Below are positions 1-15,900 of a stretch of DNA of 64,000 nucleotides, one piece after another. Each line of letters opens with the position of its first letter. Position 1 is the stretch's first letter. A program made the translations under genes and the position numbers. The stretch is from contig OZ241875.1 in the NCBI GenBank assembly GCA_965203325.1, positions 4,290,702 to 4,354,701 on the forward strand, in the 5' to 3' direction. Origin of the DNA: a bacterium (lineage in GTDB: Bacteria; UBA8248). The notes under the pieces are model-generated. The model did no database searches, had not been told where the DNA came from, and saw nothing but the letters and a program-made list of their open reading frames with translations.

Positions 1-1438
1 GTGCGAAATCGCGGTTGCGGTAGACGATGGGCCTGCCGTTCACGCCTTCGAGCGGGGGGCCGAGTTCCAGGTCTTTTTCGTTTCGGATGTGGCAACCCAG
101 GCAACCGACCTCTTCGAAGATGGATTTCCCTTGCTTGATCTGCGCGGCGTCATCGAGATTCGGGAACGCGGCCGGTTCCACCTTGCGCGGACCCTGCCGC
201 CAGACGTATGTGGCGATGTCCAGCGCTTCCTGGTCCGACAGGCTGAAATAGGGCATGCGGGTGCGCGGGTTGTAGTCTTTCGGCCTCTTGACCCAGGAGA
301 CGAGCCAGTCGGGCGCCACCTTCTCCTGGATTCTCGAGAGGTCCGGCCCCACCTTGCGCAGGCCTTCCGTGCCCGGAAGGGTGTGGCAGCCGTTACAGCC
401 CAACTCCCGGGTGAGGGAGATGCCGCGCGAGATTTGCGGCGCCTCGGGGATGTTGAATATCTCGGTGTGGCAGCTTCTGCACTTGGTTTGCGTTTCGCTG
501 CCGTGCAGAAGAGGGTCTTCCCAGAATTGCACGTGGCCGTGGGCCGTATTGAGGCTGGTGACGGCCGTTCCCTGACCGCCGTGGCAAAGCGTGCAACCGA
601 CCTTGTTGAATTCGTGCTTCGAGAGATAAAGACGCCTGTTGGGGTGCGTGCGGAAAGGTTGGGGCGCATCCTCGAAGCCCGCCCTGTTGATGCCCAGGTG
701 ACAGGTCTGGCACCGCTCCACCTTCATCACGGGTTCGTTGAAGTTGTTGCGCTCATATTCGCGCAGGACGAGCTGGCTGATCTCATAGGGACGGGCGGAG
801 ATGCCTTTCAGCCGCCGCTCCTGGGAGGAAATGTCGCCCGCCACTTTTCGCCGCGTCGCCTGGAGCGTTTTCAGCTCTTTTTCCTTGGCCTCAATCTTTG
901 CCTTTATCGCGTCTCTGTCGGCTTCGGCCTTCTCCGCGACGGGCGTTATCTCATCGAGGAGGGCCTTGGCCTCGTCGACTTCGGTTTGCTCGGCTTCTTT
1001 GTCATGTCCTTGCCGGATGGCTTCCTGAAGATAGAAGTAGGACTGATCGAAAAGCGCTTTTCTGAAGCCAAGCTCCTGCACTTTCTCGAAAGCGTCGAGT
1101 TCGCTCTTCGTGAGTTCTGCTTTCAGTTGCTTGAGTTCTTCGTCGCCCGCGAGTTTTTGTTCTTGCGCGGCGATTTTCTTGTCGAGTTCGGCGACCGCGG
1201 AGCCGGTGGTTTTCTTGAGTCTGTCGAGTTCTTTCTCTACCTGGGCTTTTTCATAGGCGTTGAACTGTTTCTGGTATTGTTTCCAGGGTCTGCGCGTGAA
1301 CGCCTCGTCCCAGACGGTCCAGAACGTCACCGCGACCATGAAGAGGCCCAGGATGAAAAACGGAATCGGACTGGTTTTTTCTTCCGGAGGTTTGAAGTCT
1401 CGGCCTTGCATCTTGAAAAAACGCTCCCCCACCGGCAT
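1..1438 (-). CDS. Membrane-anchored multiheme c-type cytochrome (3'-partial, continues beyond window start)
   Basis: Minus-strand frame opens after an in-frame TAG with ATG candidates at 1438 and 1411. N-terminal TM helix (PIPFFILGLFMVAVTFW), ~130-aa E/K/L-rich coiled-coil stalk, then at least 5 CxxCH heme motifs (CQTCH, CTLCH, CRSCH, CNGCH, CLGCH). The last two sit in class-I cytochrome c-like contexts (GPDLSRI...MPYFSLS...YVW; GPPLEGV). The frame runs off the window edge. Confidence 0.8.
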   Translation of the reverse strand, partial: MPVGERFFKMQGRDFKPPEEKTSPIPFFILGLFMVAVTFWTVWDEAFTRRPWKQYQKQFNAYEKAQVEKELDRLKKTTGSAVAELDKKIAAQEQKLAGDEELKQLKAELTKSELDAFEKVQELGFRKALFDQSYFYLQEAIRQGHDKEAEQTEVDEAKALLDEITPVAEKAEADRDAIKAKIEAKEKELKTLQATRRKVAGDISSQERRLKGISARPYEISQLVLREYERNNFNEPVMKVERCQTCHLGINRAGFEDAPQPFRTHPNRRLYLSKHEFNKVGCTLCHGGQGTAVTSLNTAHGHVQFWEDPLLHGSETQTKCRSCHTEIFNIPEAPQISRGISLTRELGCNGCHTLPGTEGLRKVGPDLSRIQEKVAPDWLVSWVKRPKDYNPRTRMPYFSLSDQEALDIATYVWRQGPRKVEPAAFPNLDDAAQIKQGKSIFEEVGCLGCHIRNEKDLELGPPLEGVNGRPIVYRNRDFA

Positions 1439-1479
1439 TTTGAGCGGAAATTCCGGGTTTCTTGGCTAAAATCCGGCTG

Positions 1480-1508
1480 ATTATAGGTACGGGCATGACG
1501 GGCGTCAA
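1480..1508 (-). promoter_or_regulatory. Sigma70-like promoter for the cytochrome gene (TTGACG-N17-TATAAT on minus strand)
   Basis: Minus-strand reading of 1508->1480 gives TTGACG (1508-1503), a 17-nt spacer, then TATAAT (1485-1480), about 40 nt upstream of ATG 1438. Direct sequence match to consensus. Confidence 0.5.
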
Positions 1509-1633
1509 CCGCAGAGCGGGTAGTTTTGACTTAAGATAATTCCGCCTGCATACGGGGAGAATATGCTGAAAACGCGAATCGCCTCCCGAAAGAGACGGCG
1601 GGTGTTCATGCCCCGCATTCGCCTCGCCTGAAG

Positions 1634-4600
1634 TTATTCGTTTTGGCTTCTGATGATGCCGGCGAGTTGGCCGATGATGGCGATGGAGATGGTCGGGTGC
1701 TCGTGAATCAGTTCGAGAAGGGGCTCTTTCTCGATACCCAGCAATGAGGTGTCCCGGCTGGCTCGCGCGCCTGCGCTTCTGCCCTCATCGCCGAAAAGCG
1801 CGATTTCCCCGAACGAGGTCGGGGGACCGAGCGTGGCCAGAATCCTCGGCGCCCCGTTCGCCTGGTTGAGGATGATTTCTATTTCCCCGTCCACGATGAC
1901 GTAGAGATAATCACAAGGGTCTCCCTGTTCGAAGAGAACCGTTCCCTCCGGTATCTGGATTTCCCTGGAAATGTTGCTCAGTATTTTCAACTCGTCCGCG
2001 CTCAACGTCTCGAACATGTTGACGCCTTTCAAGAACAGGGCTTTTTCGATGGTCGAGAGCATGAATTTCTCCTGTCCGTGTAGAATTTCGCCGACCGCGC
2101 CGTCTCGGGGGCGGTCCCGGCGCGTCTGGATGCGCACCAGTCGGCTTTCGTCATTCTCCATGGTTCTCAAGAACGCCTCAAGTTCGTCTTCGTCTTTCCC
2201 GATGATTCTCGTTGCGACGACCGCCGCCTCGCGGACGTAGGGGTCGCCCTCGGAGGCCCGCGCCTTGAATTGCGCGCGCCATTCGGCGGTCGCCTCATCC
2301 GGTTCGCTTTCGAGGTGTTTGCCCGCCGCGTCGACGGCGATGGCCTGGAGCCACGCGTTTTCGGAATCCATATAAGTCGTCAGCACCTCGTCAATCGATC
2401 CTTCGGGTATCTCCCAAAGTTTCCTGCCCTCGGAGACCTTGTCGGCGGTCGACCTGCCGAGCAGCAAAGGTTCGAGAGCCAGAATCAGGACTCTCGTATT
2501 GCCGGCCGAAGAGAAGTTCGAGAGCGTTTCGATGGCGATGGCTCTCGACGAGGAGCCGCCCCGTGCGAGGGATTCCGACACGGTATCCACCGTCTTCTCG
2601 TCTCCAATCACCCCCAATAGTTCCAGCAAAACCAGTTGTCTTTCCGCGACGACGTCTTCAAGCGCTTTTCTCAGCATCGTGAAGGCGGGTGCGTTTTCCC
2701 GGCGTTCGATGACGTGGAGGTGATTGATGACGCCGTAGACTTCCCGCAGGTGCTCCACGGCGAACCCCGAGAGGGAGTCCACGATTTCCTGCGCGCTCAT
2801 TTCGCGGGAGCCGTTTTCGGCGCTTCTGGACAAAAGCGGAGCAAGAAACGAAAGTACCCCGGAACCTTCGAGCGAGAGGGTTCCTTTTCGCTTCATGTTC
2901 TTGAGCGATTCGACGGCCTCTCGCCTCACCAGAAAATCGACGTCCGAGAGAGCGGTCAGGGCGCGTTCGAAACTCTCCCGCGAGCCTTTGTTGCCCAGTT
3001 GCCGGACGCCTCTGCGCCTGATGGCCGCGCTCTCATCCGAGGTGGTCACCCGGATGACTTCTTCCATGCTCTCCTCATCGACTCCCTGGTTCATGGCCAG
3101 AACTTCTATCGCCTCCAAGGCGGCTTCGCGGACTTTCTCCTCGTCCTGATAGAGATAGGGAATCAATCGTCTGATGAAGCGCGGGTTCTGAAGCTCTCCC
3201 ATGCACCTGAGGGCGCAGACCCTGGCCGCCGCGTCTTCTTCGTTCAGCATCCGGTGCAGGGTTTGCAGGCCGTTGGCGAGCCAGAACAGATCGTCCGAGC
3301 GGACGAGCAGCTCGACGGCACGGGCCCGGACTTCGGGGGAGCCGCTTTCCAGATTCTCGTGGACCAGTTCCGCCGTCTCCTCCGTCAGTCCGATGCTTTC
3401 CGCCGCATCCATGGCGGCGCACTGGAGGAGCGGCTCCTCGCAGGTGAGGTATTCCTCCAGCAGGGGCCGCATTTTCTCGCCCTCATCGGCTCCGGGAGCC
3501 CTGGCGAGAATTTTCAGCAACTCGGCCGCGGCCCCTCCTTTTCGCCGGGGGATTTCTTCGAGGATGATCCCGAAAATTTCGCTTCTGCCGCTTTCCGCCA
3601 TCATCTGCGCCGTGAAGACGCAAAGATCATCGTCCCCCTCGCGGATGTTCTTCCTGAGTATCGCCATGCTCTCATCGTCAACCGGGCCGAACCCTTCCTG
3701 CGCGTAGCGGAACAGGCCCAAGTTTCTCTCCTCGAGCATCCGGCGCAGGGCGGCGCCGTATTCATGACGCACGAAGAAGCCGACGGCCAGATAGGCGAAG
3801 GCGATGAACAAGGAGATGAGCGCCAATTGGCCTGCGCTCAAGGGGAAGAGGGCGAGACCGGTGGGCTTGATGATGAGCAGGGCGACGCCGCTGACGATGC
3901 TGGCCACGGCGACCACCTGGCCCGCGACGAACGCGCCGACTCTCGCGCGGATCGAGGGGGAGACGGCGTTATAGAGCAGGGCGTTGATGGCGTTTCGAAT
4001 CGATTCCTGGAGGTTCTTGTTGTTGAAGCGCAAGAAGACGGCGGAATAGAAGCCGGGCGAAATCGCCATGCCGGCGAGGCCGATGATGGTCGTGAGCGGG
4101 TAGAGGAGGTTCGCCGTTCCCAGGCCGAGCCGCTTGATGATGCGCGGGGTGATGAACGTCTGAACGAGCAGGGAGAAGGCGCTCCCGATGGCGGTGAAAT
4201 ACCCTAAAAACGAGGCGAGTTGCGCGCGGTCGGGAAAGACTTCGCGGAATACGAGGCTGTATTGGAAATCCTGAAAACTCCTGAGAATCACCACGATGAA
4301 GCTGAACAGGGCGAACGCGCAGACGTATCTGTTCGTCCGCATGAGCGCGAGATTGCCGCCTTTTGAGGCCGTCTTGGTTGTTTTGCGCTTTTTGGGGCCC
4401 GCATCGTCGATCAGGTGGTCTCTCAGCCGCCGTTCGGTGTATTGCACCACACCGACGCTTACGACGATGGCGCCGATCCATACATAGAGCAGATTCGAGA
4501 CGCTCCCCAGGATGGGGATGAGCAGCGGAATGGCGAGGCCGCCGACAATGCCGCCGTAGCGTCCCCCGGTCAGGATGATCGGAACCAGCCGTTTGGATTG

Positions 4601-5041
4601 CAGGACGTCGAGATACTGCCCGTAAAGGGCGCGGAAATTGTTCGGCAGCATGTTCGTGAACATGACGAACAGCGTGTGGAGAAGCGGGAATGCGATCGGC
4701 ATCGCGTAGGCGCGGAAATCCGCGAAGATGAGCAGTTTGATGCCGAAAACGAGCACGATGAAAAAAACCAGGACGGTCTTGAACATCGCCGGAATCGAGA
4801 GTTTTTCGGTCAGCGAGGAGTAGAAGGTGCTGATGAAGATGATCATCAGGGCGTTGAATATGTACATATAGGGGAGAAAACCCGGGCCGACTTCCGAGAG
4901 GAACAGGGCTTCGGATACGGTGAGCCCGATGGAGAACTGAATCCCGATCAGGAAATAGAAGAAAAAGAACACCGAGAAGACGAGCAACTCTTCTTCCTGG
5001 ATGTTGAAGACTTTTTTGAGGAGTTTCTTCATGCCGGTCAC
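1634..5041 (-). CDS. 1135-aa fusion: 12-TM transporter domain (ATP:ADP antiporter/TLC-Npt-like or MFS-like) + HEAT (PBS-lyase-type) repeat region + C-terminal CAP-type cyclic-nucleotide-binding domain
   Basis: GTG start at 5041 (ATG alternative at 5032). About 480 aa with ~12 hydrophobic helices. A central ~450 aa region has repeated E..VR..A...L / DE.AA.R..A.R.LG HEAT-like units. C-terminus has the cNMP-binding signature (LSADELKILSNI...FGEIALF...RSAGARA). The specific transporter family is recalled from memory and needs an HMM check. Confidence 0.7.
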   Translation of the reverse strand: MTGMKKLLKKVFNIQEEELLVFSVFFFFYFLIGIQFSIGLTVSEALFLSEVGPGFLPYMYIFNALMIIFISTFYSSLTEKLSIPAMFKTVLVFFIVLVFGIKLLIFADFRAYAMPIAFPLLHTLFVMFTNMLPNNFRALYGQYLDVLQSKRLVPIILTGGRYGGIVGGLAIPLLIPILGSVSNLLYVWIGAIVVSVGVVQYTERRLRDHLIDDAGPKKRKTTKTASKGGNLALMRTNRYVCAFALFSFIVVILRSFQDFQYSLVFREVFPDRAQLASFLGYFTAIGSAFSLLVQTFITPRIIKRLGLGTANLLYPLTTIIGLAGMAISPGFYSAVFLRFNNKNLQESIRNAINALLYNAVSPSIRARVGAFVAGQVVAVASIVSGVALLIIKPTGLALFPLSAGQLALISLFIAFAYLAVGFFVRHEYGAALRRMLEERNLGLFRYAQEGFGPVDDESMAILRKNIREGDDDLCVFTAQMMAESGRSEIFGIILEEIPRRKGGAAAELLKILARAPGADEGEKMRPLLEEYLTCEEPLLQCAAMDAAESIGLTEETAELVHENLESGSPEVRARAVELLVRSDDLFWLANGLQTLHRMLNEEDAAARVCALRCMGELQNPRFIRRLIPYLYQDEEKVREAALEAIEVLAMNQGVDEESMEEVIRVTTSDESAAIRRRGVRQLGNKGSRESFERALTALSDVDFLVRREAVESLKNMKRKGTLSLEGSGVLSFLAPLLSRSAENGSREMSAQEIVDSLSGFAVEHLREVYGVINHLHVIERRENAPAFTMLRKALEDVVAERQLVLLELLGVIGDEKTVDTVSESLARGGSSSRAIAIETLSNFSSAGNTRVLILALEPLLLGRSTADKVSEGRKLWEIPEGSIDEVLTTYMDSENAWLQAIAVDAAGKHLESEPDEATAEWRAQFKARASEGDPYVREAAVVATRIIGKDEDELEAFLRTMENDESRLVRIQTRRDRPRDGAVGEILHGQEKFMLSTIEKALFLKGVNMFETLSADELKILSNISREIQIPEGTVLFEQGDPCDYLYVIVDGEIEIILNQANGAPRILATLGPPTSFGEIALFGDEGRSAGARASRDTSLLGIEKEPLLELIHEHPTISIAIIGQLAGIIRSQNE

Positions 5042-5128
5042 TTATCAAGCGGTGGAGAGGATACTTCGTGAGATTATCGCCTCCCGGAAGCTCCGGAGTG
5101 GAAGCGAACTTGCGCTGTTGATTCTAGC

Positions 5129-6775
5129 CTAGGCTTTTTGAGATTTCCATGAGTAGAACGACAAGGCGTCCTCCGTCCACTGCGCGCAGTTCCGGCTGAA
5201 TCTATCCCATCGGCTGTTGGCGCATTGGGCGCGAACGGGGTCGGCGTTGCCCTCGGCAATGAGGCCGTTGAGCGGCGAGAGGTCGAATTCGGCCCGAACG
5301 GGCACTCTGCCGCGCTCCTCGGGGCCGAGGAGAGACAAAAAGCGCGCGAACGCGTCGAATGCGCCTCGAATCTTCTCGCACAGGTGCTCCGCGCCTCCCG
5401 CGTATGCGACCAGGGGTGGAACCAAAGGGGCGTAGCGGTTCAGTTCCATGCCACCCTCCGTGCGGTTCGTGATGCTGTCCACGCCGACGACCCCGACCGA
5501 ATCCTCCGAGAATTCCACCGGAAAGAGTCTGGCGTAAATCGTTTCCACGACCGGCCCTTCGCGGCTGAGCCTCAGATGAACGCGGACGCTGAACAGGCCG
5601 AAATCGATCCAGTCGCATATCAGCGGAAGGTAGCGCGCGTCGAACACCTGCTCGTAGTTCTCGATGGCGCTCGCCAGGAGGCGAATCGAATCCTCACGCG
5701 TGCGGGACGCTTCGCGCAGTTCGGATTCGAGTCTGGGCGCGCAGTTTTTGAGCATCTGCCCCAAAACGTCCGGGGAAGCGCCGCCTCCCGCCCTTCGGGT
5801 CTTGACGTAGGCTTTCGCGGTCGCCGGGCTTTCCTGGAAGCGGTGAACGAGCCAGTCCATCGCCTGGAGGTGATCGTGGTTTTCCGCGTCGAGAGACAAG
5901 GGGAGGGGAATCGCGTGGTCCGCCGCGACGCCGAGTCTGCTCAAATCCGGAAATCCGAACCCGTTGGGGTAGACGTCCAGCCGAAAGCATCCGCGTCCCC
6001 CGCCGCCTTCCTGCGGTTTGACGAAGAAAGTCCCCGTCCCCCGTTTTTGAGACAGGGCGGAGGCCCTCTCCAGAATGGCGGCGGCGGTCTCCGCAGGTCT
6101 TCCTCCGTTCAGTTCCACCACTTCATAGGCGGCCGTCAGGCGACGCTCGGGACCGCCCGCTTCGGGGTTTTCCGTGTCCGTCCCGTTTCCGTTCAGGAGT
6201 TCGTACGTGGTTTTCTTGTTGGAGAGCGGCCCGCCGGGGGCGGTGAGAGACCCCGGCGCGACGACGATTCCGCGGGCTTCCAGGACCTTGGCGAGGGTGG
6301 CGTCGTAGAGGCTTCTCTGGGCGGTCTGGCTGATGACGAGCAACTCTTTCGGCGCTCTGGCGGCGCGGGCCAGCAGTTCCTCCCGCCGGTTCAGGACCCT
6401 GACGGGGATGGACAACCCGAGTTGTTTCAGGTGCGCCCTCATCACCCGCGCCGTTTCCATGGTGAGGGGGAGCCGGCTCGGGGAGCCGTCCAGCAAAAGG
6501 ATTTCTCCCGGACGCCGAATGGGCGGCGCGTCTTCCAGAATGCGCAAGTCTGCGAAACGGGGTTCGCGCGACGCCCAGAGGTTGAGGCTTTCGATCAGCG
6601 TTTCGTTCAGATCGCCGTCAGGCGAGTCGAACTCCCGGCTCACGCGGTACAGGTCCCAGACGCCGCCGCTCGCATCGGGCGTGAGATTGTAGAGAGCGGG
6701 TTCCCGCGCGATGCGGGGATGGTTTGATGGTTTGCGCGAGGTCAAGGTTTCGTTCTCGATGCCTAAAACACCCAC
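5129..6775 (-). CDS. Hypothetical protein, possible ATP-grasp-like carboxylate-amine ligase
   Basis: 548-aa ORF whose start overlaps the stop of the upstream gene by 13 nt. Contains FFVKPQEGGGGRGCF (Lys + Gly-rich loop reminiscent of the ATP-grasp phosphate loop) and a downstream AEFDL...N stretch. No strong family match from memory. Confidence 0.45.
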   Translation of the reverse strand: MGVLGIENETLTSRKPSNHPRIAREPALYNLTPDASGGVWDLYRVSREFDSPDGDLNETLIESLNLWASREPRFADLRILEDAPPIRRPGEILLLDGSPSRLPLTMETARVMRAHLKQLGLSIPVRVLNRREELLARAARAPKELLVISQTAQRSLYDATLAKVLEARGIVVAPGSLTAPGGPLSNKKTTYELLNGNGTDTENPEAGGPERRLTAAYEVVELNGGRPAETAAAILERASALSQKRGTGTFFVKPQEGGGGRGCFRLDVYPNGFGFPDLSRLGVAADHAIPLPLSLDAENHDHLQAMDWLVHRFQESPATAKAYVKTRRAGGGASPDVLGQMLKNCAPRLESELREASRTREDSIRLLASAIENYEQVFDARYLPLICDWIDFGLFSVRVHLRLSREGPVVETIYARLFPVEFSEDSVGVVGVDSITNRTEGGMELNRYAPLVPPLVAYAGGAEHLCEKIRGAFDAFARFLSLLGPEERGRVPVRAEFDLSPLNGLIAEGNADPVRAQCANSRWDRFSRNCAQWTEDALSFYSWKSQKA

Positions 6776-7932
6776 TTGCGCTGGCGCATGAAGTGTTTGA
6801 TCACCCAGTCCGCAATGGCGCCGCCCACGGCATTGTCGGTCGCAAGGGAAGAGGGGTTCGGGGCGATGCAGCTCAGGGCGCGTATCCCCGTCATACGATA
6901 CGCCTCCTCGCGCGCGTGCGCTTCGTTGGCGAGCCTTCCGGAAATGAGCATGTTTTCCTCCTCCACCCCCAGGTGGCTTCGGATCCAGTGGACGATGAGC
7001 GTTGATTCCAGCGTATCACATGCGCAGACGATCAACCCTCTGCGCGAGAGCCAGTCTTTGACCCAGGGGTCGCTCGCCACGTGAAGGCTGGCGTCCGAGG
7101 AGGGAGAATCCGCCAGTTCCGCGATGACGATTTCCGCCTTGGCGCATGCGTGGCGTAGCAGGTTTTGGGCGCATCGCCTGACCTTGTGCCTGGAGACGCC
7201 GCACGTGGAGGCAAGGCCCGCATCGACGAAATCCCAGCCGAGTCTCGCGGAATCGAAAAACCCGAGCGGTCTTCCGTAGTTCACTTGCATGAGGTCCCGC
7301 ATCCGGCCGGTTCCCGTGAGTTTCACGTATGAAACGTGAATGCCCGAGGAGTGCAGGGCGGAGGCGAGCGAAGACGCGCAGGTCGTTTTGCCCACGTCCA
7401 TATCGGAGCCGGTGACCAGGATGATGGGAGCGCAGGGAACTCCCTCTTCATCCACGGGGCAGCGGGTATCGGGAATGACGGGGAGATGAGAAAGCAGAGC
7501 GGGTTCGCCTCGATGCGCGACGCCCCCTTTCACCTCTATTCTCACGCACGGCGTTTCGGGGTTCGTGCGGATCCCGCAGACGCCGCCGACATTCAACAGG
7601 TCGAGCACGGTTCCGGGTGCTGCGGGAGAGTCCGGCTCACGGCCCGAAACGCTGCGATTCGCATATCGCCCGCCGATCACAACGACCACGTTCATCTTTT
7701 CGCGCAATTTTGCTTCGCTCGTCATCCAGGCATCTTGCGTCCCCTGGAGGACTTCGAGTGTTTCCAGGCGATCGACGGGAGCGTTCTTCGGCGCTGCGAC
7801 GACTTCACCCAGCGCGATTCCGTTCGAGGGAACGGCCCTGGGGTCGGGCGTGAAATCCGCATCGAACGCATACGGGATTTCAGGCGACAGGAACAATCCT
7901 CGGGCGGTGGATGCGAAAAAGTCCGGTTTCAA
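6763..7932 (-). CDS. DUF1611-like protein (N-terminal Rossmann-like domain + P-loop NTPase-like domain)
   Basis: 389 aa with TTG start. Begins with NVVVVIGGRYA (Rossmann-like strand), then ILVTGSDMDVGKTTCASSLASAL (Walker-A-like GKTT). Architecture resembles DUF1611/COG3367; family assignment is from memory. Confidence 0.55.
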   Translation of the reverse strand: MKPDFFASTARGLFLSPEIPYAFDADFTPDPRAVPSNGIALGEVVAAPKNAPVDRLETLEVLQGTQDAWMTSEAKLREKMNVVVVIGGRYANRSVSGREPDSPAAPGTVLDLLNVGGVCGIRTNPETPCVRIEVKGGVAHRGEPALLSHLPVIPDTRCPVDEEGVPCAPIILVTGSDMDVGKTTCASSLASALHSSGIHVSYVKLTGTGRMRDLMQVNYGRPLGFFDSARLGWDFVDAGLASTCGVSRHKVRRCAQNLLRHACAKAEIVIAELADSPSSDASLHVASDPWVKDWLSRRGLIVCACDTLESTLIVHWIRSHLGVEEENMLISGRLANEAHAREEAYRMTGIRALSCIAPNPSSLATDNAVGGAIADWVIKHFMRQRKWVF

Positions 7933-7945
7933 TTTTCACCATGTC

Positions 7946-9436
7946 CTAAGCGGGAGAAAGAGCGAGACGGCGCGTGAATGTATCTATCATTTCCCGGGCG
8001 GCGGGGGATATCTGCTCTTCTCCCTCTTCATAATAGATGGATGAGACGCCCTCGAGCTTACAGAATGCTCCCCTCGGCTCTACTATGGTGCCTTTCGCCG
8101 GGGGAGAGCAAGTGACGAGCACCTCATCCTGGTCTTGAACGTCGCTCAGGCGATAACCCCGCCGGATGAATTCGGGCCTCCCGTTTTGGACGGTGTAGAT
8201 TCCGGGTTCCAGCGAATAACCGATTCGCGCTCTCGAAGGGCTCGTGTTTCGAATCAAAAGCTGAAAACCGGATAAATCCGATCGGCCGAGTTCGGCGAGC
8301 GAATCCCGGTGTGCGTCGAGAGCGGCGCCCGGCTTCAGGAATTCGGCCAGATGCCAGTAGGTGGTGGTGGGTGCGTCGCCGTGTATTTCCTCGAGCTCGG
8401 TCATCAGTTGCGTGGTTCCCAGCACGCGCGGGTTGAGTTCGAGGGCATAGGGTTCGTCCCGATGGACGATGAAATCGACGCCGTATATCCCCCGGTAGCC
8501 CGCACGGGCTATCCACTCTCCGATTTTCAGGGTGAATTCCTCGATTTTTCGCCGGCTCCTTTCGGAAACCAGCCGATACGCCGCATAGTCGCTTCCGGCA
8601 TAGTCGAAGCGGTGCATGGAGCAGCCGGGAATTCCCGTGAACATCACCGAAGGGTGGGACATCCGGGGTTTCCCGTCATAAATCAACCCCGCCGTTCCCA
8701 GGGCGGGGCCGCTCAGAAACGCGCTCACGATCACCGGCGCATCGGGGCCCAGTTTTTCGGTGAGTTCATCCCGTTTGTTCGCGAGCGCCTCGGATGAGTC
8801 GATGAGGTGCGTCTGGTTGCCCGAGGAGCCGATTCGCTCCGAAATGATCATGACCGGCCCGAATTGATCAAGTTGTTTGGGTCCGAGTTCGCCCAGGGCC
8901 ACCACGTCCCCCGGGGGAACGGCGAACCCCGCTTCGACCGCTTGGCGCCGGAACGCTATCTTGTCATCGAATCTCGTCTTGATTTCCACCGGGTTCGCCA
9001 GGATGTGGAGCCTGCCGTCGGCTTCTTCTGCGAGTTTGCCGAGGAATTCCGTGGAGCGGTAGGGGATGACGTATCGGGGAGCGTCCCCTTGTGAGAGAAA
9101 TTCCCGGATTTGAGAGCCCAGGGCGCCTTCATAGGCTTCTACGAGTGATGAATGGGTCCATACGATTCGTCTGTTCCGCCCGCGCTCCACGGCGAAATAG
9201 CGCAGGCGCCTGTCCCATTCGGGCCCGTCGAGACCGTAGTCACAGGCGATGAGGAAATCGAGGGGGACGATGTTTTCCACCGTGATCGAATCGACCGCGC
9301 GCAGCCCCTGAAAGCCGAACGTCGAGCCGTCCGGAACGGCGGAGGTCAGCGCTTCTTTGAAACTGTCTTTTGCATGACGAGACAAGGAAAAGCATCCTTC
9401 ATGGAGAATCAATGATGAATGTCCAGACGGCGCCAA
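7946..9436 (-). CDS. ATP-grasp family ligase with ~200-aa N-terminal extension
   Basis: 496 aa. The C-terminal motif GIYGVDFIVHRDEPYALELNPRVLG is the classic ATP-grasp Mg/ATP-binding E-x-N motif. Lies 13 nt upstream of the DUF1611-like gene on the same strand. Confidence 0.7.
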   Translation of the reverse strand: MAPSGHSSLILHEGCFSLSRHAKDSFKEALTSAVPDGSTFGFQGLRAVDSITVENIVPLDFLIACDYGLDGPEWDRRLRYFAVERGRNRRIVWTHSSLVEAYEGALGSQIREFLSQGDAPRYVIPYRSTEFLGKLAEEADGRLHILANPVEIKTRFDDKIAFRRQAVEAGFAVPPGDVVALGELGPKQLDQFGPVMIISERIGSSGNQTHLIDSSEALANKRDELTEKLGPDAPVIVSAFLSGPALGTAGLIYDGKPRMSHPSVMFTGIPGCSMHRFDYAGSDYAAYRLVSERSRRKIEEFTLKIGEWIARAGYRGIYGVDFIVHRDEPYALELNPRVLGTTQLMTELEEIHGDAPTTTYWHLAEFLKPGAALDAHRDSLAELGRSDLSGFQLLIRNTSPSRARIGYSLEPGIYTVQNGRPEFIRRGYRLSDVQDQDEVLVTCSPPAKGTIVEPRGAFCKLEGVSSIYYEEGEEQISPAAREMIDTFTRRLALSPA

Positions 9437-9663
9437 AATGAAAACAGGCGATTCTAATTCGATAGCCTCGCGGATATCAACATAATAATACGGCGTTTCG
9501 GAAAACGATCGGTGTCACTCCCGGGAGCTTCTGCAACGCGCAGCGCGCTATGCTAGGATACGGGGCGTTTCAGCCGAAAAATGACACACTCATGCGTGAG
9601 AGTGGATGTATGTCCGTAGAGAGAAACATGCCCGAATCGGCGTTGGATACCGATGAATACCCG

Positions 9664-10542
9664 ATGATGTCGGAATCGGAGCTCAGGTGGGAGAAATTCC
9701 GCCGGAGTTTGGTGCGCGCCAAACCGGCGATGCTCGGAGGCGTTTTTCTCATCCTGCTGGTGGTCGTTTCTCTTTCCGCCCCCCTCATCGCGCCGCAAGA
9801 CCCGAGCCTGGTGGACGTCAACCTGCGCCTGAAGCCTCCCGTGTGGGAGGAGGGCGGGAGCGTGAGCTACCCCCTGGGAACCGACGCGCTGGGCCGGGAC
9901 ATTCTGAGCCGGCTCATGTACGGGGGCCGCGTCTCCATTCTGGTGGGCTTGAGTTCGGTGGTGATTTCGGGGGTCATCGGCATCGTCCTGGGCCTTGTCT
10001 CGGGTTTTTTCGGCGGGAAAATCGACGATCTCATCAGCGGGTTTTCCGAAATCCAACTGGCGTTTCCCTTCATTCTGCTGGCCCTCACGATCATGGCGGT
10101 CGTCGGGCCGGGCCTGCTCAACATCATCGTGGTGCTGGGGATCAGCCGGTGGGTGGCGTACGGCCGCGTGGTGAGAGGACAGGTCATCTCGATAAGGGAG
10201 CGCGAATTCGTGGAGGCCACGCGCGCCCTGGGTTACCCTTTGTACCGCATATTGTTCATGCAGATTCTGCCCAACACCTTATCTCCGCTGATCGTCATCG
10301 CCACCTTCGCCGTGGCGGGGAACATCATTTCCGAATCCTCGCTGAGTTTCCTCGGGCTCGGCGTACCGCCCTCGGTCGTCACCTGGGGGGGCATGTTGTC
10401 CGAGGGACGCGAATATCTGAGAGGCGCGTGGTGGATGGCGACTTTTCCGGGTCTCGCCATCATGGCGACGGTTCTGAGCATCAACCTTATCGGCGACTGG
10501 CTGCGGGACTACATGGACCCCCGCCTCGGCGATGATATGTAG
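9664..10542 (+). CDS. ABC peptide/opine transporter permease, DppC/OppC type
   Basis: ISRWVAYGRVVRGQVISIREREFVEATRALGYPLYRILFMQILPNTLSPL matches the DppC/OppC EAA-loop region. In-frame alternative starts at 9610 and 9550; 9664 gives the typical ~290-aa length. Confidence 0.8.
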   Translation: MMSESELRWEKFRRSLVRAKPAMLGGVFLILLVVVSLSAPLIAPQDPSLVDVNLRLKPPVWEEGGSVSYPLGTDALGRDILSRLMYGGRVSILVGLSSVVISGVIGIVLGLVSGFFGGKIDDLISGFSEIQLAFPFILLALTIMAVVGPGLLNIIVVLGISRWVAYGRVVRGQVISIREREFVEATRALGYPLYRILFMQILPNTLSPLIVIATFAVAGNIISESSLSFLGLGVPPSVVTWGGMLSEGREYLRGAWWMATFPGLAIMATVLSINLIGDWLRDYMDPRLGDDM

Positions 10543-10563
10543 GTTTCTGAAGGGAATTCGTGC

Positions 10564-12111
10564 ATGAAAAGGGCCTTGTTGTGCGGATGTTGTCTGCTGC
10601 TCGTGGCGCTCGCCGCCTGCGGCCGCGAAGCGAAAGAGGGTCCCTTCACGGTTCTCCTCTCGGTGGAGGCCAATACGCTCGACCCCCATTTCGCGACGGC
10701 CACCATCGAGTGGAGCATATTGATGAACATGTTCGACCCGCTCATCGAACGGCGCGGCGATATGACGCTGGGCCCCGCCCTGGCCGAACGCTGGGAGGTG
10801 GACGAGACGAAAAAAATCTGGACGTTTCATCTTCGCAAAGGGGTGAAGTTTCATAACGGCGAACCTTTCGATGCGGAATCCGTGCGCTACACGTTCGAGC
10901 GCATGCGCGATAAAAAGCTCAAGCCCCGCATCACGGTTTACCGGAGGATTTTCCTGGACAGGGTGGAAAAAGTGGACTCCCACACCGTGAAGATTCATAC
11001 GAAGCGCCCGGTCGCCACCCTGCCGGTGTGGATGGTGAACGCGTTCATGCTGCCGCCCAAGTATTATTCGTCGACCCCGCCCAAGGAATTGTTGAAGAAA
11101 CCCGTGGGCTCGGGACCCTACAAGCTGGTGAAATGGGTCAAGGACGACCGCATCGAGATGGCGGCCAACGAGGGCTGGTGGCGGGGTGAGCCTGCGATAA
11201 AAAAAGCGGTCTGGCGGCCGGTGGCCGAGGCTTCGGCCCGCATAGGGGAGCTTGAGACGGGCGGGGCCGACGTCATCATGAATATCTCGCCCGATCAGTC
11301 GAAAACCATTCTGTCGAGAGAAGAGGGTCTCCAGCTTAAAGGTGCTCGGGGGGGACGCAGGATTTATCTGGGAATTCGCACGGATCACGGGGTGCTCGGC
11401 GATGCGCGCGTCCGCCGGGCGCTGAACCACGCGATTGATTTCGAGGCCGTCGTCAGGAACGTTTTTCTGGGCCATGGCTCGCGGATGCGCAGCATCGTCA
11501 ATCCCCCGAACGCCGCCCCGAACATCAAGGCGTACGCCTACGATCCCCCAAAGGCGAAAGCGCTCCTCGCCGAGGCCGGTCTCAAGGATACGAATGGGGA
11601 CGGTGTCCTGGAAGCGAATGGAAAGCCATTTGAGGTGAAACTTGAAGTACCCGCTTCCAGATATTTGAAAGGAAAGGAGATGGCGGAATTTATAGCAGCT
11701 TATTTCCGCGACGTGGGCGTCCACGTGGAAGTGATTCCCCTGGAGTGGTCCGTTTTCCTCGCCAGAAGGAGAAAAAAGACGCTGGCGCCCTTGTATTTTC
11801 ACGGGTTCAGTTCCGCCTTCAACGAAGAACTCGACCTGGGTGTATTGAGGCCGAACCTTTTCGCGAACCTCACCGCCTGGAGGAACCGGAAGTTTATTCA
11901 AAATTACAAGAAGTTGGGCCAGACGTTCGACCCCGCCGAGCGCAAGCGGATCAGCTACCGGATGCAGCGCATCGTTCACGAGGAAAGTCCGTGGGTGTTT
12001 CTCTGGAACCAGTATGATTTTTTCGGCCTGAGCGCGAGGACGCAGTGGACGCCGAGGCCGGATGAGAGAATCTACCTGCCCACGATTCGCTTGAAAGAGG
12101 CGAAAGAATAG
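10564..12111 (+). CDS. ABC transporter substrate-binding lipoprotein, family 5 (peptide/nickel/opine type)
   Basis: 515 aa with a lipoprotein signal (LLLVALAACG). Length and motifs are typical of DppA/OppA-family binding proteins. Confidence 0.85.
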   Translation: MKRALLCGCCLLLVALAACGREAKEGPFTVLLSVEANTLDPHFATATIEWSILMNMFDPLIERRGDMTLGPALAERWEVDETKKIWTFHLRKGVKFHNGEPFDAESVRYTFERMRDKKLKPRITVYRRIFLDRVEKVDSHTVKIHTKRPVATLPVWMVNAFMLPPKYYSSTPPKELLKKPVGSGPYKLVKWVKDDRIEMAANEGWWRGEPAIKKAVWRPVAEASARIGELETGGADVIMNISPDQSKTILSREEGLQLKGARGGRRIYLGIRTDHGVLGDARVRRALNHAIDFEAVVRNVFLGHGSRMRSIVNPPNAAPNIKAYAYDPPKAKALLAEAGLKDTNGDGVLEANGKPFEVKLEVPASRYLKGKEMAEFIAAYFRDVGVHVEVIPLEWSVFLARRRKKTLAPLYFHGFSSAFNEELDLGVLRPNLFANLTAWRNRKFIQNYKKLGQTFDPAERKRISYRMQRIVHEESPWVFLWNQYDFFGLSARTQWTPRPDERIYLPTIRLKEAKE

Positions 12112-12114
12112 ACG

Positions 12115-13032
12115 ATGAGCGCCTATCTTTTCAGACGATTTCTTCGGGCCGTCGTGGTCGTGGTCGGCGTGAGCTTCATCTCGTTCGCCGTCTTGTTCCT
12201 ATCGGGCGACCCGACCGACACCATGGTGGGCGAGGACTGGACGGTCGAGGAGGTACAGAAACTCAAAAAAGACTTGGGTCTGGACAAGCCCTGGTTCGTT
12301 CAATACACGCTCTACGTGGGCAGGGCGGTGCAGGGTGATTTCGGAGAAAGCCTGCGCTACCGCCAGCCCGCGTTCGAACTCATCATGGAGCGTCTGCCGG
12401 CGACGCTGGAACTCGCTCTCGTGGCGCTGGTTCTCTCGATTATCCTGGCGTTTCCGGTAGGAGTCATCAGCGCGACGAAACGCGGCTCTCCGTATGATCA
12501 CGGGGGGATGCTATTCGCGCTCCTGGGGCAGTCCATGCCCGTTTTCTGGCTCGGCTTGATGCTCATCCTCATCTTCGGGGTGGGTCTGCGGTGGCTGCCC
12601 GTCAGCGGAAGAAGCGGCTGGGAGCATCTGGTGCTGCCCGCCATCGCGCTTTCCACCTACTCGATTGCGAGAAACGCGCGGGTGGTCCGAAGCTCCATGC
12701 TCGAGGTTCTGCGGCATGAATACGTGAAGACCGCCCGGGCGAAGGGACTCTCCGAGTGGGTCGTCGTCAACCTGCACGTGCTCAGGAATTCCATGATTCC
12801 GGTGATCACCATCATCGGCCTCGAATTCGGGCATCTGCTGGGGGGTGCTGTGATCGTCGAGACGATTTTCTCCTGGCCGGGGGTGGGAAGGCTCCTGATC
12901 CAGGCCGTCTACGCCAAGGATTTCCCCCTGGTGCAGGCCTCGGTGACCATCACCGCTCTGATTTTCGTGTCATTGAACCTCATCGTTGACCTGATGTATT
13001 CCGTCCTCGACCCAAGGGTGAGACTCCATTGA
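12115..13032 (+). CDS. ABC peptide transporter permease, DppB/OppB type
   Basis: 305 aa with 6 TM helices. The N-terminus (MSAYLFRRFLRAVVVVVGVSFISF) and conserved loop are typical of DppB/OppB. Lies 3 nt after the binding-protein gene. Confidence 0.85.
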   Translation: MSAYLFRRFLRAVVVVVGVSFISFAVLFLSGDPTDTMVGEDWTVEEVQKLKKDLGLDKPWFVQYTLYVGRAVQGDFGESLRYRQPAFELIMERLPATLELALVALVLSIILAFPVGVISATKRGSPYDHGGMLFALLGQSMPVFWLGLMLILIFGVGLRWLPVSGRSGWEHLVLPAIALSTYSIARNARVVRSSMLEVLRHEYVKTARAKGLSEWVVVNLHVLRNSMIPVITIIGLEFGHLLGGAVIVETIFSWPGVGRLLIQAVYAKDFPLVQASVTITALIFVSLNLIVDLMYSVLDPRVRLH

Positions 13033-13967
13033 GCCGGACCGCGTATTTCTGGACACCCGAATCTCTCATGCACGACAACGGCCGGCATGTGGAGAACGTC
13101 GAGCGCGCCAAACGCCTGGCGCCCGAGAGAATACTCCCCCAAGTCCCGTCGCTCCGACACATGGAGATTACACCGCACGACGCTAAGGAGTGGGTTCTGA
13201 GGGTGCATGAGGAATCGCACCACCGCTTCGTGCGCGAAGCGTGTGACGGCGGCAGGTGTATTCTCGATGGCGGAGATACGCTGGCGGGTCCGGGAAGCTA
13301 TGAGGCCGCCCTCGCCGCTGTCGATGCGGCCCTGAGCGCGGCGGATGCCGTCGTGGGTGGGGAGGCCGATAACGCCTTTTGCGCCGCGAGGCCTCCGGGA
13401 CACCACGCCTTGCCCCATCAGTCGATGGGTTTTTGCCTGTTCGCTACCGCTTCCATCCTGGTTCGGTATCTGCAGGAAAAACACGGCCTCCGGAGAATCG
13501 CCGTGGTGGATTGGGACGTGCATCACGGAAACGGCACGCAGGATACCTTCTGGCGAGATCCGGATGTTTTTTTCGTCTCCTTGCATCAGCATCCCCACTA
13601 TCCGGGCACGGGGCTCTCGGGCGAGACGGGGGAGGGAGCGGGCGAGGGTGCGACGCTCAACATTCCCGTCGCGGCGAGAACGCCCGAGGAGGAATACTTG
13701 GCGAAATTTCAGGAAAGCGTTATCCTCGCCATCGAGGCGCACGCGCCCGAAGCGATCATCGTATCGGCGGGTTTCGACGCGCACCGCGACGACCCGCTCG
13801 GAGGGCTGATGATCACCGAAGCCGGGTTCGCCCGCCTGACCGGATGGGTGAAGACGCTTGCCGAAAGCCTCTGCGGGGGGCGGCTTATCTGTCTTCTCGA
13901 AGGCGGATACAACCTCGACGCATTGGAGCGCTCCGTCGTCGCGCACTTGCGAGAACTTTCGGGGTAA
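13029..13967 (+). CDS. Histone-deacetylase-superfamily amidohydrolase (acetylpolyamine aminohydrolase / HDAH / AcuC-like)
   Basis: TTG start overlapping the dppB stop (TTGA). Contains the AYFWTPESLMHDNG and DWDVHHGNGTQD motifs characteristic of bacterial HDAC-like amidohydrolases. Confidence 0.85.
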   Translation: MSRTAYFWTPESLMHDNGRHVENVERAKRLAPERILPQVPSLRHMEITPHDAKEWVLRVHEESHHRFVREACDGGRCILDGGDTLAGPGSYEAALAAVDAALSAADAVVGGEADNAFCAARPPGHHALPHQSMGFCLFATASILVRYLQEKHGLRRIAVVDWDVHHGNGTQDTFWRDPDVFFVSLHQHPHYPGTGLSGETGEGAGEGATLNIPVAARTPEEEYLAKFQESVILAIEAHAPEAIIVSAGFDAHRDDPLGGLMITEAGFARLTGWVKTLAESLCGGRLICLLEGGYNLDALERSVVAHLRELSG

Positions 13968-14038: not shown

Positions 14039-14113
14039 CCATATAGCTTGTGGAACTGGCTTCGGCGTATTGGTTCGATGAACTGGATTTTCAACTTACC
14101 GGGGGGAGAGGGT

Positions 14114-15891: not shown

Positions 15892-15900
15892 GAGTGTGGC

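Follow-up and report, generated by a model that had tools for sequence, protein, structure and literature searches.

The window analysed here (64,000 nucleotides of a bacterial contig) contains a Nitrospinota gene cluster of four adjacent minus-strand genes, which an initial annotation had described as a co-directional operon and each of which was found at the positions given below. In the direction of transcription they are G1, an ATP-grasp ligase of the CPSase/biotin-carboxylase type (7946-9436; maximal ORF 496 aa); G2, a protein with a predicted all-beta N-terminal domain and a BioD/CTP-synthase/DUF1611(DgcN)-like P-loop domain (6763-7932; 389 aa); G3, a sequence-orphan ATP-grasp ligase that is RimK/LysX/ArgX/DcsG/Ddl/GshB-like by predicted fold (5129-6775; 548 aa); and G4, a transporter-HEAT-cNMP fusion (1634-5041; 1135 aa). 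The motifs ELNPR, FFVKPQEGGGGRGCF and GKTT were each located in these proteins. Dozens of conserved homologues were found for every one of the four, which indicates that they are real genes and not chance ORFs, whereas the long plus-strand ORFs overlapping them (2636-4207 and 5225-6727) had no comparable homologue support. On the basis of homologue lengths and alignments, G1 probably starts at TTG 9385 (479 aa), behind a conserved GAAGGA, and G4 at ATG 5032, and G3 possibly starts at TTG 6745.

The stop codon of G1 (TAG, 7948-7946) and the start of G2 (TTG, 7932) are separated by the 13-nt gap that had been proposed. The 13-nt overlap between G2 and G3 (6763-6775) holds if G3 begins at GTG 6775, and is replaced by an 18-nt gap if it begins at TTG 6745. 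Upstream of G1, inside a divergent intergenic region of 113 nt, a consensus scan detected a putative sigma-70-like promoter on the minus strand (P1, TTGATA-18-TAGAAT, 9451-9480; 10/12 consensus matches), both hexamers of which were kept across 11 aligned related genomes (71-97% protein identity). The tight junctions and the conservation of P1 support G1-G2-G3 as a single transcription unit. The same scan placed a second minus-strand sigma-70-like site upstream of G4 (P2, TGGAAA-17-TAGAAT, 5121-5149; 9/12 matches), which spans the G3 stop and lies in part in the 87-nt G3-G4 spacer. Its non-coding -10 box, TAGAAT, is shared by all but one of 15 aligned loci, even at identities as low as 54-65%; therefore, G4 is probably not simply the final cistron of a single transcript and, judging from the sequence, appears to have its own promoter.

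On the other side of the intergenic region, a plus-strand operon (9550-13967), linked to the cluster in Nitrospinota, comprises four genes that were assigned by Pfam to an OppC-like permease (9550-10542), a family-5 solute-binding protein (10564-12111), an OppB/NikB-like permease (12115-13032) and an HDAC-type amidohydrolase (13029-13967), and contains no ATPase gene. The 4-nt overlap between the last two genes suggests translational coupling. The best NCBIfam matches of the ABC components were Opp4C, Opp2B/NikB, Gsi and Dpp, all under cutoff, and these components scored similarly against nickel/metallophore and peptide importers. The HDAC-type protein resembles HDAC6 and bacterial HDAH/lysine deacylases.

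The assignment of G1 as an ATP-grasp ligase was confirmed by Pfam (ATP-grasp_3, 29.1 bits; cutoff 23.2) and by conservation of the metal- and phosphate-binding residues (Asp/Gln ... Glu-x-Asn-x-Arg): D304, E316, N318 and R320 (479-aa numbering) were invariant in 23 sequences from both lineages and align to the NVQFAV...EVNPR motif of Escherichia coli CPSase. The G1 family profile matched CPSase at an E value of 3e-9 and biotin or pyruvate carboxylases at 1e-6 to 1e-7; NCBIfam PRK06524 was matched at 1e-17, which is under that model's cutoff.

The situation of G3 is different, as its kinship is visible only by fold. No ATP-grasp match could be found in Pfam and NCBIfam at E <= 0.1, no match was obtained in the PDB with either the single sequence or a 29-sequence profile, and hhalign gave only a 0.6% probability for a relationship with the G1 family. 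Nevertheless, the predicted model of the 548-aa protein, whose structure had been put forward for checking, shows the three-domain ATP-grasp fold, RimK/LysX-like, with ArgX, LysX/ArgX and RimK as the first three of the nearest structures. Candidates for the catalytic Lys, the Gly-rich loop and the Asp/Glu-x-Asn metal ligands are K253, G257-G260, D498, E508 and N510, which were invariant and which the predicted model places on its strands 249-254, 494-499 and 506-511. Compared with the RimK/LysX/ArgX branch (also DcsG, Ddl and GshB), the fold is alike but identity is only 11-14%; G3 is almost double the length of the branch enzymes, and the model adds an N-terminal helical region and a helical insert of ~80 residues at 300-378. 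Since it has no sequence-level match to any curated ATP-grasp family, G3 would, if the model holds, represent a new, sequence-invisible ligase family within the ATP-grasp superfamily. Membership of the LysW/ArgX amino-group-carrier pathway was rejected: no LysW-type carrier lies nearby, none of the small ORFs in the whole window ends in [DE]W[GAS][DE], and the neighbours are Opp-like, HDAC, TetR, HtrA and Cu-ATPase genes, with no Lys/Arg pathway genes (LysZ/Y/J/K).

G2 had been described as an NTPase-like protein with a GKTT P-loop behind a Rossmann-like domain. The P-loop part was retained: residues ~168-389 form a BioD/DUF1611-type domain with GSDMDVGKTT and K204-x-T-G. In contrast, the N-terminal domain (residues ~1-165), which has no Pfam match, is all-beta in the predicted model (pLDDT 91), with seven beta-strands and no alternating beta-alpha pattern. 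Pfam DUF1611_C, Pfam AAA_26 and NCBIfam bioD all remained under cutoff. G2 was not assigned to DUF1611/DgcN, as the DUF1611_C match is sub-threshold and the N-domain is not the Rossmann-like DUF1611_N (~200 of the 339-342 residues of DUF1611 structures 2g0t and 2obn align), or to the dethiobiotin synthetase BioD, as TIGR00347 scored 26.9 bits against a cutoff of 83.3, over the P-loop region only, and no bio genes lie nearby. G2 resembles DgcN, a D-glutamate N-acetyltransferase, as well as DUF1611 structures, and its full-length distant relatives (25-35% identity) are located upstream of argC-argB-argD, the place expected for an enzyme that forms N-acetylglutamate, or beside M20 ArgE/DapE-type deacylases. 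On these grounds an N-acyltransferase-type enzyme is more likely than a generic NTPase, and the plain NTPase label was given up; just as well, G2 may be an ATP-dependent enzyme of the BioD/CTP-synthase type.

The architecture reported for G4, with a ~12-TM transporter, HEAT repeats and a cNMP-binding domain in one polypeptide, was upheld. A hydropathy profile showed 11-12 TM segments in a 6+6 layout (residues 1-~450, 3686-5041), followed by HEAT repeats (residues ~480-1000; HEAT_2, 5e-24) and the cNMP-binding domain (residues 1029-1115, 1697-1957; PF00027, 4e-21, 75.3 bits against a cutoff of 27.5), whose phosphate-binding cassette (FGEIALF..GRSA; FGEIALFGDEGRSAGA) is intact and follows the pattern G-E-x-A ... 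R-[ST]-A. The suggested TLC identity was not borne out, because the TM domain had no TLC or MFS match even at E <= 10; when used alone, it matched nothing in Pfam or the PDB. An exhaustive HMMER search recovered 5222 clusters at 50% identity, mostly of 870-1250 aa, in many unrelated contexts, so that the family is not operon-specific. In the relatives sampled (26-32% identity), HEAT domains were present, often together with cNMP domains; the TM parts passed the TLC cutoff in 3 of 10 cases (24.5-27.5 bits vs 21) or matched MFS_1 below cutoff. As G4 itself does not pass, its relationship to TLC is indirect: the domain layout is that of TLC (ATP/ADP translocase)/MFS fusions with HEAT and cNMP domains, but the TM domain matches no Pfam model. 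No characterised member of this family of more than 5000 clusters was found, and the cluster, if our model of it holds, would give these cNMP-binding transporter fusions a first candidate substrate context.

Comparison across genomes separated a widespread core from lineage-specific additions. Across 74 distinct related loci (75 locus ids), whose MAGs bear at least four different phylum names, every G3 homologue is accompanied by a co-directional G1 homologue; the latter is immediately upstream, except that in Nitrospinota G2 lies between the two. G2, G4 and the divergent OppC/SBP/OppB/HDAC operon are confined to the Nitrospinota/Tectomicrobia group, where the linkage is kept in every locus as far as contig flanks allow; one locus (L005, ~40% identity, 5.9-kb contig) keeps it with just the OppC end of the divergent operon present. 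About 40 Omnitrophota-type genomes carry G1 and G3 without G2 or G4, usually with a junction of a few nucleotides. In these, a MATCAP/DUF1704 carboxypeptidase (PF08014; TIGR02421, QEGLA-like metallopeptidase) precedes the ligase pair in 24 of 30 informative loci, and a CstA transporter occurs in 21 of ~33. Accordingly, the expected linkage of DUF1611, ATP-grasp and transporter genes is conserved within the Nitrospinota group, but elsewhere only the ligase pair recurs, and by this comparison of gene orders the conserved functional unit is G1 and G3 alone. In Nitrospinota synteny extends over the entire neighbourhood, with TetR, HtrA, a Cu-ATPase and a multihaem cytochrome among the genes shared; therefore, the linkage of G4 and the Opp/HDAC operon may partly be inherited gene order and not shared function.

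Starting from these families, catalytic motifs and gene linkages, we infer that the cluster encodes two sequential ATP-grasp ligations, which would yield a small peptide-like metabolite that may be N-acylated, and that its transport and hydrolysis are linked to them; we give this reading a probability of about 0.5. G1 and G3 would each activate a carboxylate as an acyl-phosphate and couple it to an amine, and the two ligations in succession would assemble a small peptide or peptide-like conjugate. The Nitrospinota lineage would have inserted G2 between the ligases, where its most likely role would be N-acylation (acetylation) of the starting amino acid or of the product, and placed the cNMP-regulated, TLC/MFS-like G4 downstream, which would carry either the product or a precursor through the membrane. 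The divergent ABC permease/binding-protein components and the HDAC-type amidohydrolase could then recapture the compound and deacylate or hydrolyse it. Omnitrophota-type loci, with the ligase pair, the metallocarboxypeptidase and CstA, have the same general plan, in which genes for a hydrolase and a transporter flank two ligases. The fact that two independent lineages add a transporter and a hydrolase of unrelated families to the same pair argues for a transported, turned-over small molecule. The 'nucleotide-linked' product previously considered found no support in any evidence gathered.

Known pathways offer partial parallels. Glutathione is made in two steps, the second by the ATP-grasp enzyme GshB; N-acetylated di- and tripeptides arise from an N-acetyltransferase and RimK-like ATP-grasp ligase(s), as in NAAG (N-acetyl-Asp-Glu, from NAT8L and RIMKLA/B) and NAGGN (Ngg and AsnO). 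By analogy, the cluster would share the NAAG/NAGGN design, with a putative N-acyltransferase-type G2, ligases G1 and G3 and a deacetylase-family hydrolase nearby. However, G2 belongs to the P-loop DUF1611/BioD type and is no GNAT, an AsnO-type amidotransferase is lacking, and each of the two separate ligases represents a different branch of the ATP-grasp enzymes; the resemblance, known here from genes, is one of design and not of membership. In agreement with the initial annotation, no description of such a pathway was found in the literature.

Among the alternatives, reversible protein tagging is unlikely but the most credible: G1 and/or G3 would modify a specific protein encoded elsewhere with amino acids, at its C-terminus or on a side chain, and the MATCAP-type carboxypeptidase of Omnitrophota would remove them. 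RimK acts on S6, LysX/ArgX on LysW and TTL/TTLL on tubulin, and the enzymes nearest to G3 (ArgX, LysX/ArgX and RimK) modify the C-terminal Glu of a protein and not a free metabolite, which speaks against the metabolite reading. Moreover, both the eukaryotic tubulin tyrosine ligase/MATCAP cycle and the Omnitrophota-type loci pair an ATP-grasp ligase with a MATCAP-family carboxypeptidase. It is a rather long shot that the latter represent a prokaryotic counterpart, possibly an evolutionary relative, of that cycle for reversible C-terminal tagging of a protein with amino acids, and that Nitrospinota rewired it by adding an N-acyltransferase-like enzyme and a transporter gated by cyclic nucleotides.

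We consider it improbable that the ligases alternate two residues on a cyanophycin- or poly-Glu-like storage or structural chain, with the peptidase or amidohydrolase depolymerising it and the transporters handling di- or oligopeptides. Glutamate can be polymerised by RimK-type enzymes, and ligases accompanied by an exopeptidase (MATCAP) and peptide-type transporters (CstA, Opp-like) would suit such a cycle of synthesis and mobilisation. Cyanophycin synthetase itself was rejected, as no Mur-ligase or S51 peptidase domain was present in cluster proteins or conserved neighbours.

Quite doubtful is a metallophore or metal-buffering peptide, in which the ligases would make a chelating peptide, G4 would export it and the Nik/Opp2/Cnt-like ABC components would re-import the metal complex. 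The permease reached 340 bits with Opp2B, a nickel permease (cutoff 350), NikA and CntA were matched by the binding protein about as well as Opp/Gsi/Dpp, an HMA-domain Cu-type P-type ATPase is encoded 2 kb past the operon and is syntenic in relatives, and a NikR_C gene adjoins MATCAP-G1-G3 in one related Elusimicrobiota-labelled contig. However, the sub-cutoff NCBIfam matches do not discriminate substrates, synteny throughout the lineage confounds the linkage of the Cu-ATPase, most Omnitrophota-type loci have no metal-related gene beside the pair, and no known opine or NIS metallophore enzyme is present.

Least credible is macrocyclisation of a ribosomal precursor peptide by G1 and G3, as catalysed by MdnB and MdnC: the Nitrospinota operon spacers (13 nt, overlap, 87 nt and 113 nt) are too small for a precursor gene and none adjoins the ligases there, so that membership of the graspetide/microviridin clusters was rejected; no conserved small ORF was seen, with systematic clustering in the Omnitrophota-type loci restricted to ORFs of at least 80 aa; graspetide ligases score far under RimK/LysX/DcsG/Ddl enzymes as G3 matches; and G1 is CPSase/biotin-carboxylase-like, not MdnC-like.

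If the two-ligation model holds, G1-G3 would define a pathway of two ligase steps that has gone unrecognised; the MAGs carrying it are labelled Nitrospinota, Tectomicrobia, Omnitrophota, Elusimicrobia and others, and nearly all that is known of these lineages comes from metagenomes. What the pathway makes might prove to be a new compatible solute, signal, metal ligand or protein tag. The G2 relatives beside argC-argB-argD suggest, in addition, an unrecognised type of N-acetylglutamate-forming enzyme. Sponge-associated and marine MAGs are among the close Nitrospinota relatives.

All four co-directional ORFs proposed in the initial annotation were present on the minus strand: an ATP-grasp ligase (G1, 7946-9436, 496 aa), a two-domain P-loop protein (G2, 6763-7932, 389 aa), a predicted second ATP-grasp ligase (G3, 5129-6775, 548 aa) and a transporter-HEAT-cNMP fusion (G4, 1634-5041, 1135 aa). 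The motifs quoted from them (ELNPR, FFVKPQEGGGGRGCF and GKTT) could all be found in the ORFs. Opposite-strand ORFs also arise by chance in this 60% G+C sequence; however, dozens of conserved homologs were identified for each of the four, and they should therefore be considered genuine genes. Homolog lengths and alignments suggest that the true products are slightly shorter than the maximal ORFs. G1 probably starts at TTG 9385, which is preceded by a conserved GAAGGA (most G1 homologs are 478-487 aa long), and G4 probably at ATG 5032, whereas G3 may start at TTG 6745 because most of its homologs have 538 aa. The gap between the G1 stop and the G2 start was 13 nt, as originally described; the 13-nt overlap of G2 and G3 holds if G3 starts at GTG 6775, but not with the alternative start TTG 6745. 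An 87-nt spacer lies between G3 and G4. The tight packing of the genes is unaffected by the revised starts.

In a collection of 5.8 billion proteins, nearly all homologs of G1, G2 and G3 belonged to MAGs labelled Nitrospinota, Nitrospinae or 'Tectomicrobia', which places the window in this lineage. A pattern scan based on the G3 alignment, with one genome per species, yielded 69 loci; including those found earlier there were 75 locus identifiers, of which 74 were distinct (L001 and L072 are one contig). These comprised a Nitrospinota group of ~30 species (53-97% identity) and ~40 MAGs labelled Omnitrophota, Planctomycetia, Elusimicrobia or Deltaproteobacteria (31-36% identity; Omnitrophota-type loci). 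All cluster proteins were then run by tblastn against the 75 identifiers, and the pattern was unambiguous. G1 preceded G3, in the same orientation, in all 74 distinct loci, and in the Omnitrophota-type loci the two genes were directly adjacent, often overlapping or 3-4 nt apart. G2, G4 and the divergent OppC/SBP/OppB/HDAC operon next to G1 (Opp/HDAC) were found in every Nitrospinota-group locus with sufficient contig reach, and a deep-branching locus on a 5.9-kb contig (L005, 37-41% identity) retains all four genes G1-G4 and, of the divergent operon, the OppC end. None of these additional genes could be detected by tblastn in any Omnitrophota-type locus. Thus, the expected neighborhood linkage was kept across phyla for the G1-G3 pair, whereas that of G2, G4 and Opp/HDAC was confined to the Nitrospinota group.

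Clustering of the genes neighboring the Omnitrophota-type pairs revealed two conserved partners: a MATCAP/DUF1704 metallocarboxypeptidase (PF08014, E 2e-49; TIGR02421-like), whose gene immediately precedes G1 in 24 of the 30 informative loci, and a CstA transporter (PF02554, E 4e-143), whose gene immediately follows G3 in 21 of ~33. Since the pair occurs in all loci and its flanking partners are lineage-specific, the G1-G3 ligase pair is the ancestral unit, around which two lineages have independently placed a hydrolase and at least one transporter from unrelated families. It should be noted that synteny in the Nitrospinota group spans the whole neighborhood, including TetR, HtrA, Cu-ATPase and downstream multihaem cytochrome genes; shared function is therefore less strongly supported for G4 and Opp/HDAC, by their conserved adjacency, than for the pair, which is conserved across phyla. 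In Omnitrophota-type loci (L036-L075; for example, L040 4347-13200, L061 and L048), genes in the same orientation upstream of MATCAP-G1-G3-CstA also encode a spore-photoproduct-lyase-like (SPL-type) radical-SAM protein, in 20 loci, and a member of the nitroreductase family, in 14, and NAD synthase, GH130 phosphorylase and other genes were observed further downstream; these genes may be part of the module or may only reflect lineage synteny. Neither the window nor any Nitrospinota locus contained homologs of MATCAP, CstA, the radical-SAM protein or the nitroreductase. A CobA-like P-loop protein at the G2 position (Elusimicrobiota-labelled contig) is unrelated to G2 and was rejected as its analog because it was found in only 4 loci.

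With regard to the ligases themselves, G1 could be assigned as a bona fide ATP-grasp enzyme, as first proposed, on the basis of an above-threshold match to Pfam ATP-grasp_3. A profile of 23 family members matched the second ATP-grasp module of carbamoyl-phosphate synthetase (CPSase; E 3e-9) as well as biotin and pyruvate carboxylases, and the metal and phosphate ligands of CPSase align with the invariant D304, E316, N318 and R320 of G1. No sequence-level membership test placed G3: the single sequence had no match in Pfam, NCBIfam or PDB sequences, its 29-sequence profile had none in the PDB, and a profile-profile comparison with G1 revealed no similarity. Only structure prediction placed it. 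The AlphaFold2 model from the family alignment was confident (pLDDT 85, pTM 0.88), and the invariant residues (K253-P254, G257-G260, D498 and E508-x-N510) sit on model strands at the probable sites of the ATP-binding Lys, flexible Gly loop and Mg ligands of ATP-grasp enzymes. Hence the earlier assignment from a Lys/Gly loop was probably correct, and G3 is predicted to be a new sequence-orphan family inside the ATP-grasp superfamily. It is almost twice as long as RimK or LysX, due to an N-terminal helical region and a helical insert of ~80 residues. The cluster is solidly real and conserved across phyla, with a structurally hidden enzyme family at its core; its folds, motifs and linkage are what the analysis shows.

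The model of G2 (pLDDT 91) contains two domains, and residues 1-165 are all-beta, which is inconsistent with the Rossmann-like N-terminal domain suggested previously. Sequence-level matches were confined to the P-loop and the following K-x-T-G segment, and included BioD (profile E 2e-5). The proposed DUF1611 relationship was partly borne out, in that DUF1611_C and AAA_26 were matched, but the window protein scored under both Pfam cutoffs. With its C-terminal domain under threshold and a different N-terminal domain, G2 lies outside DUF1611; it also lies outside BioD, and represents a sister family. Scanning metagenomes with the G2 alignment identified many relatives at 25-35% identity, several of which align across both domains (residues ~5-360); none of them adjoins G1 or G3. 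Some immediately precede argC (TIGR01850, above cutoff) in a run with an argB-like amino-acid kinase gene and argD, the place where a glutamate N-acylating enzyme is expected, and others immediately follow genes for a flavin reductase and an M20 ArgE/DapE/glutamate-carboxypeptidase-type deacylase; no LysW-like ORF was found in these loci. The structurally related DgcN N-acetylates D-glutamate (PDB 7xrj title; PMC12363236), a chemistry that matches the argC-side position. Considering this position and the DgcN chemistry, we favor an amino-acid or peptide N-acyltransferase role for G2; an ATP-dependent reaction of the BioD/CTP-synthase type is a possible alternative. The DUF1611 sister family formed by the G2 relatives is widespread (~330-350 aa; L092-L155 on metagenome contigs, such as L093 958-4943, L095 1801-4603, L097 429-2380, L121, L124, L131 and L140) and has no curated model; it may be an unrecognized type of N-acetylglutamate-forming enzyme.

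In agreement with the ~12-TM fusion described at the outset, the hydrophobic segments of G4 number 11-12 and are arranged as 6+6; the protein also has an extended region of HEAT repeats, and the cNMP-binding domain at its C-terminus retains the FGE...RSA cassette intact. A match of its own membrane domain to TLC was not obtained; this domain matched no Pfam model and no PDB entry, and could be placed only through relatives. An exhaustive HMMER search (E < 1e-3) retrieved 5222 clusters at 50% identity, most of 870-1250 aa, and sampled relatives contain HEAT repeats, often a cNMP domain, and membrane parts matching TLC (three above cutoff) or MFS_1. Based on these relatives, G4 is a member of a very large uncharacterized fusion family distantly related to TLC and MFS, and the fusion type is not specific to the G1-G3 operon. 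The transporter-HEAT(-cNMP) architecture is extremely common (G4 and P0170-P0319), with no characterized member apparent, and an alkaline-phosphatase domain is also present in one relative, the 1655-aa P0220.

Transcription signals suggest that the proposed four-gene operon is divided. Upstream of G1, a sigma-70-like site (P1, minus strand, 9480->9451, TTGATA-18-TAGAAT) has both hexamers kept in 11 related genomes. A second site (P2, minus strand, 5149->5121, TGGAAA-17-TAGAAT) lies across the G3 stop codon, and 14 of the 15 loci aligned keep its non-coding -10 box, even where protein identity is as low as 54%. Given this conservation, we read G1-G2-G3 as one unit from P1 and G4 as being expressed at least partly independently from P2, rather than as a simple operon member. 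Searches of the entire window for Rfam families (gathering thresholds) and for tRNAs returned nothing, so a riboswitch of known type was not detected upstream of either operon; no convincing intrinsic terminator was found in the intergenic spacers, and the divergent promoter region contained only one weak palindrome. The plus-strand Opp/Nik-like importer operon (9550-13967) encodes two permeases, a binding protein and, last, an HDAC-type amidohydrolase, but no ATPase subunit, and this order is kept in Nitrospinota-group loci with contigs reaching that far. The amidohydrolase start overlaps the importer permease stop by 4 nt, suggesting translational coupling, and this deacetylase-family enzyme and G2 fit an acylation/deacylation pair. 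A permease scored 340 bits against the nickel permease Opp2B (cutoff 350), and both peptides and metal chelates are thus kept as candidate substrates. Further 3' on the plus strand (14048-18312) are a TetR-family regulator, an HtrA-type protease and an HMA-domain P-type (Cu-type) ATPase, all syntenic in close relatives; in more distant Nitrospinota-group loci TetR and the ATPase are still syntenic, and HtrA gave no match there. A candidate for regulating the divergent promoters is TetR, although no operator-like inverted repeat was found in the 113-nt divergent intergenic region.

Taken as a whole, we assign a probability of about 0.5 to a model of two-step ligation to a small peptide-like compound, with acylation, transport and recovery or hydrolysis. 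G1 and G3 would each convert a carboxylate into an acyl-phosphate and couple it to an amine. In Nitrospinota, G2 would add an N-acyl group and G4, controlled by cyclic nucleotides, would transport the compound or its precursor, while recovery and breakdown would fall to the Opp-like importer and HDAC-type hydrolase; in Omnitrophota, MATCAP would take the hydrolase role and CstA that of the transporter. Substrates, reaction order and transport direction are what we infer in this model. The main rival, reversible protein C-terminal tagging by the ligases, is considerably less probable: the three solved structures closest to G3 are protein C-terminus ligases and MATCAP acts as a protein carboxypeptidase in eukaryotes, but transporters are attached to the pair in both lineages and no target gene is linked. 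Synthesis of a metallophore receives lower weight, although the ABC parts score about equally against Nik/Opp2/Cnt and peptide systems and the Cu-ATPase is syntenic; a storage polymer is likewise given lower weight. A graspetide RiPP is also of lower weight, as the operon leaves no room for a precursor gene; neither a RiPP precursor nor a LysW-like carrier was found in the window or in the arg-type loci with G2 relatives.

The proposed two-step ligation to a peptide-like compound has its closest design analogs in the NAAG and NAGGN pathways, which combine an acetyltransferase with a RimK-like ligase, and in two-step glutathione synthesis; the cluster is a member of none of these. Its enzymes belong to known superfamilies (ATP-grasp, BioD/DUF1611 P-loop, TLC/MFS and HDAC), and clusters that combine a ligase, a transporter and a hydrolase follow a generally familiar logic. 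The view that the pathway is undescribed found support: neither the isolated G1-G3 pair nor either of its four-gene arrangements was found described in the literature covered, which did not include the survey of Iyer et al. (2009), and searches on DUF1611, DUF1704, MATCAP with ATP-grasp, HEAT/cNMP transporters and Nitrospin* ATP-grasp found nothing relevant. The cluster idea is directly testable.

Finally, at window positions 1-1560 the minus strand codes for the N-terminal portion of a multihaem c-type cytochrome with five CxxCH motifs, which runs off the window start. A plus-strand ORF at 89-1480 (463 aa, no Pfam match) is probably spurious. The cytochrome corresponds to one of ~960 aa that is encoded downstream of G4 in related loci, and its gene in the window is preceded by a strong promoter-like site (TTGACG-17-TATAAT, 1508->1480).
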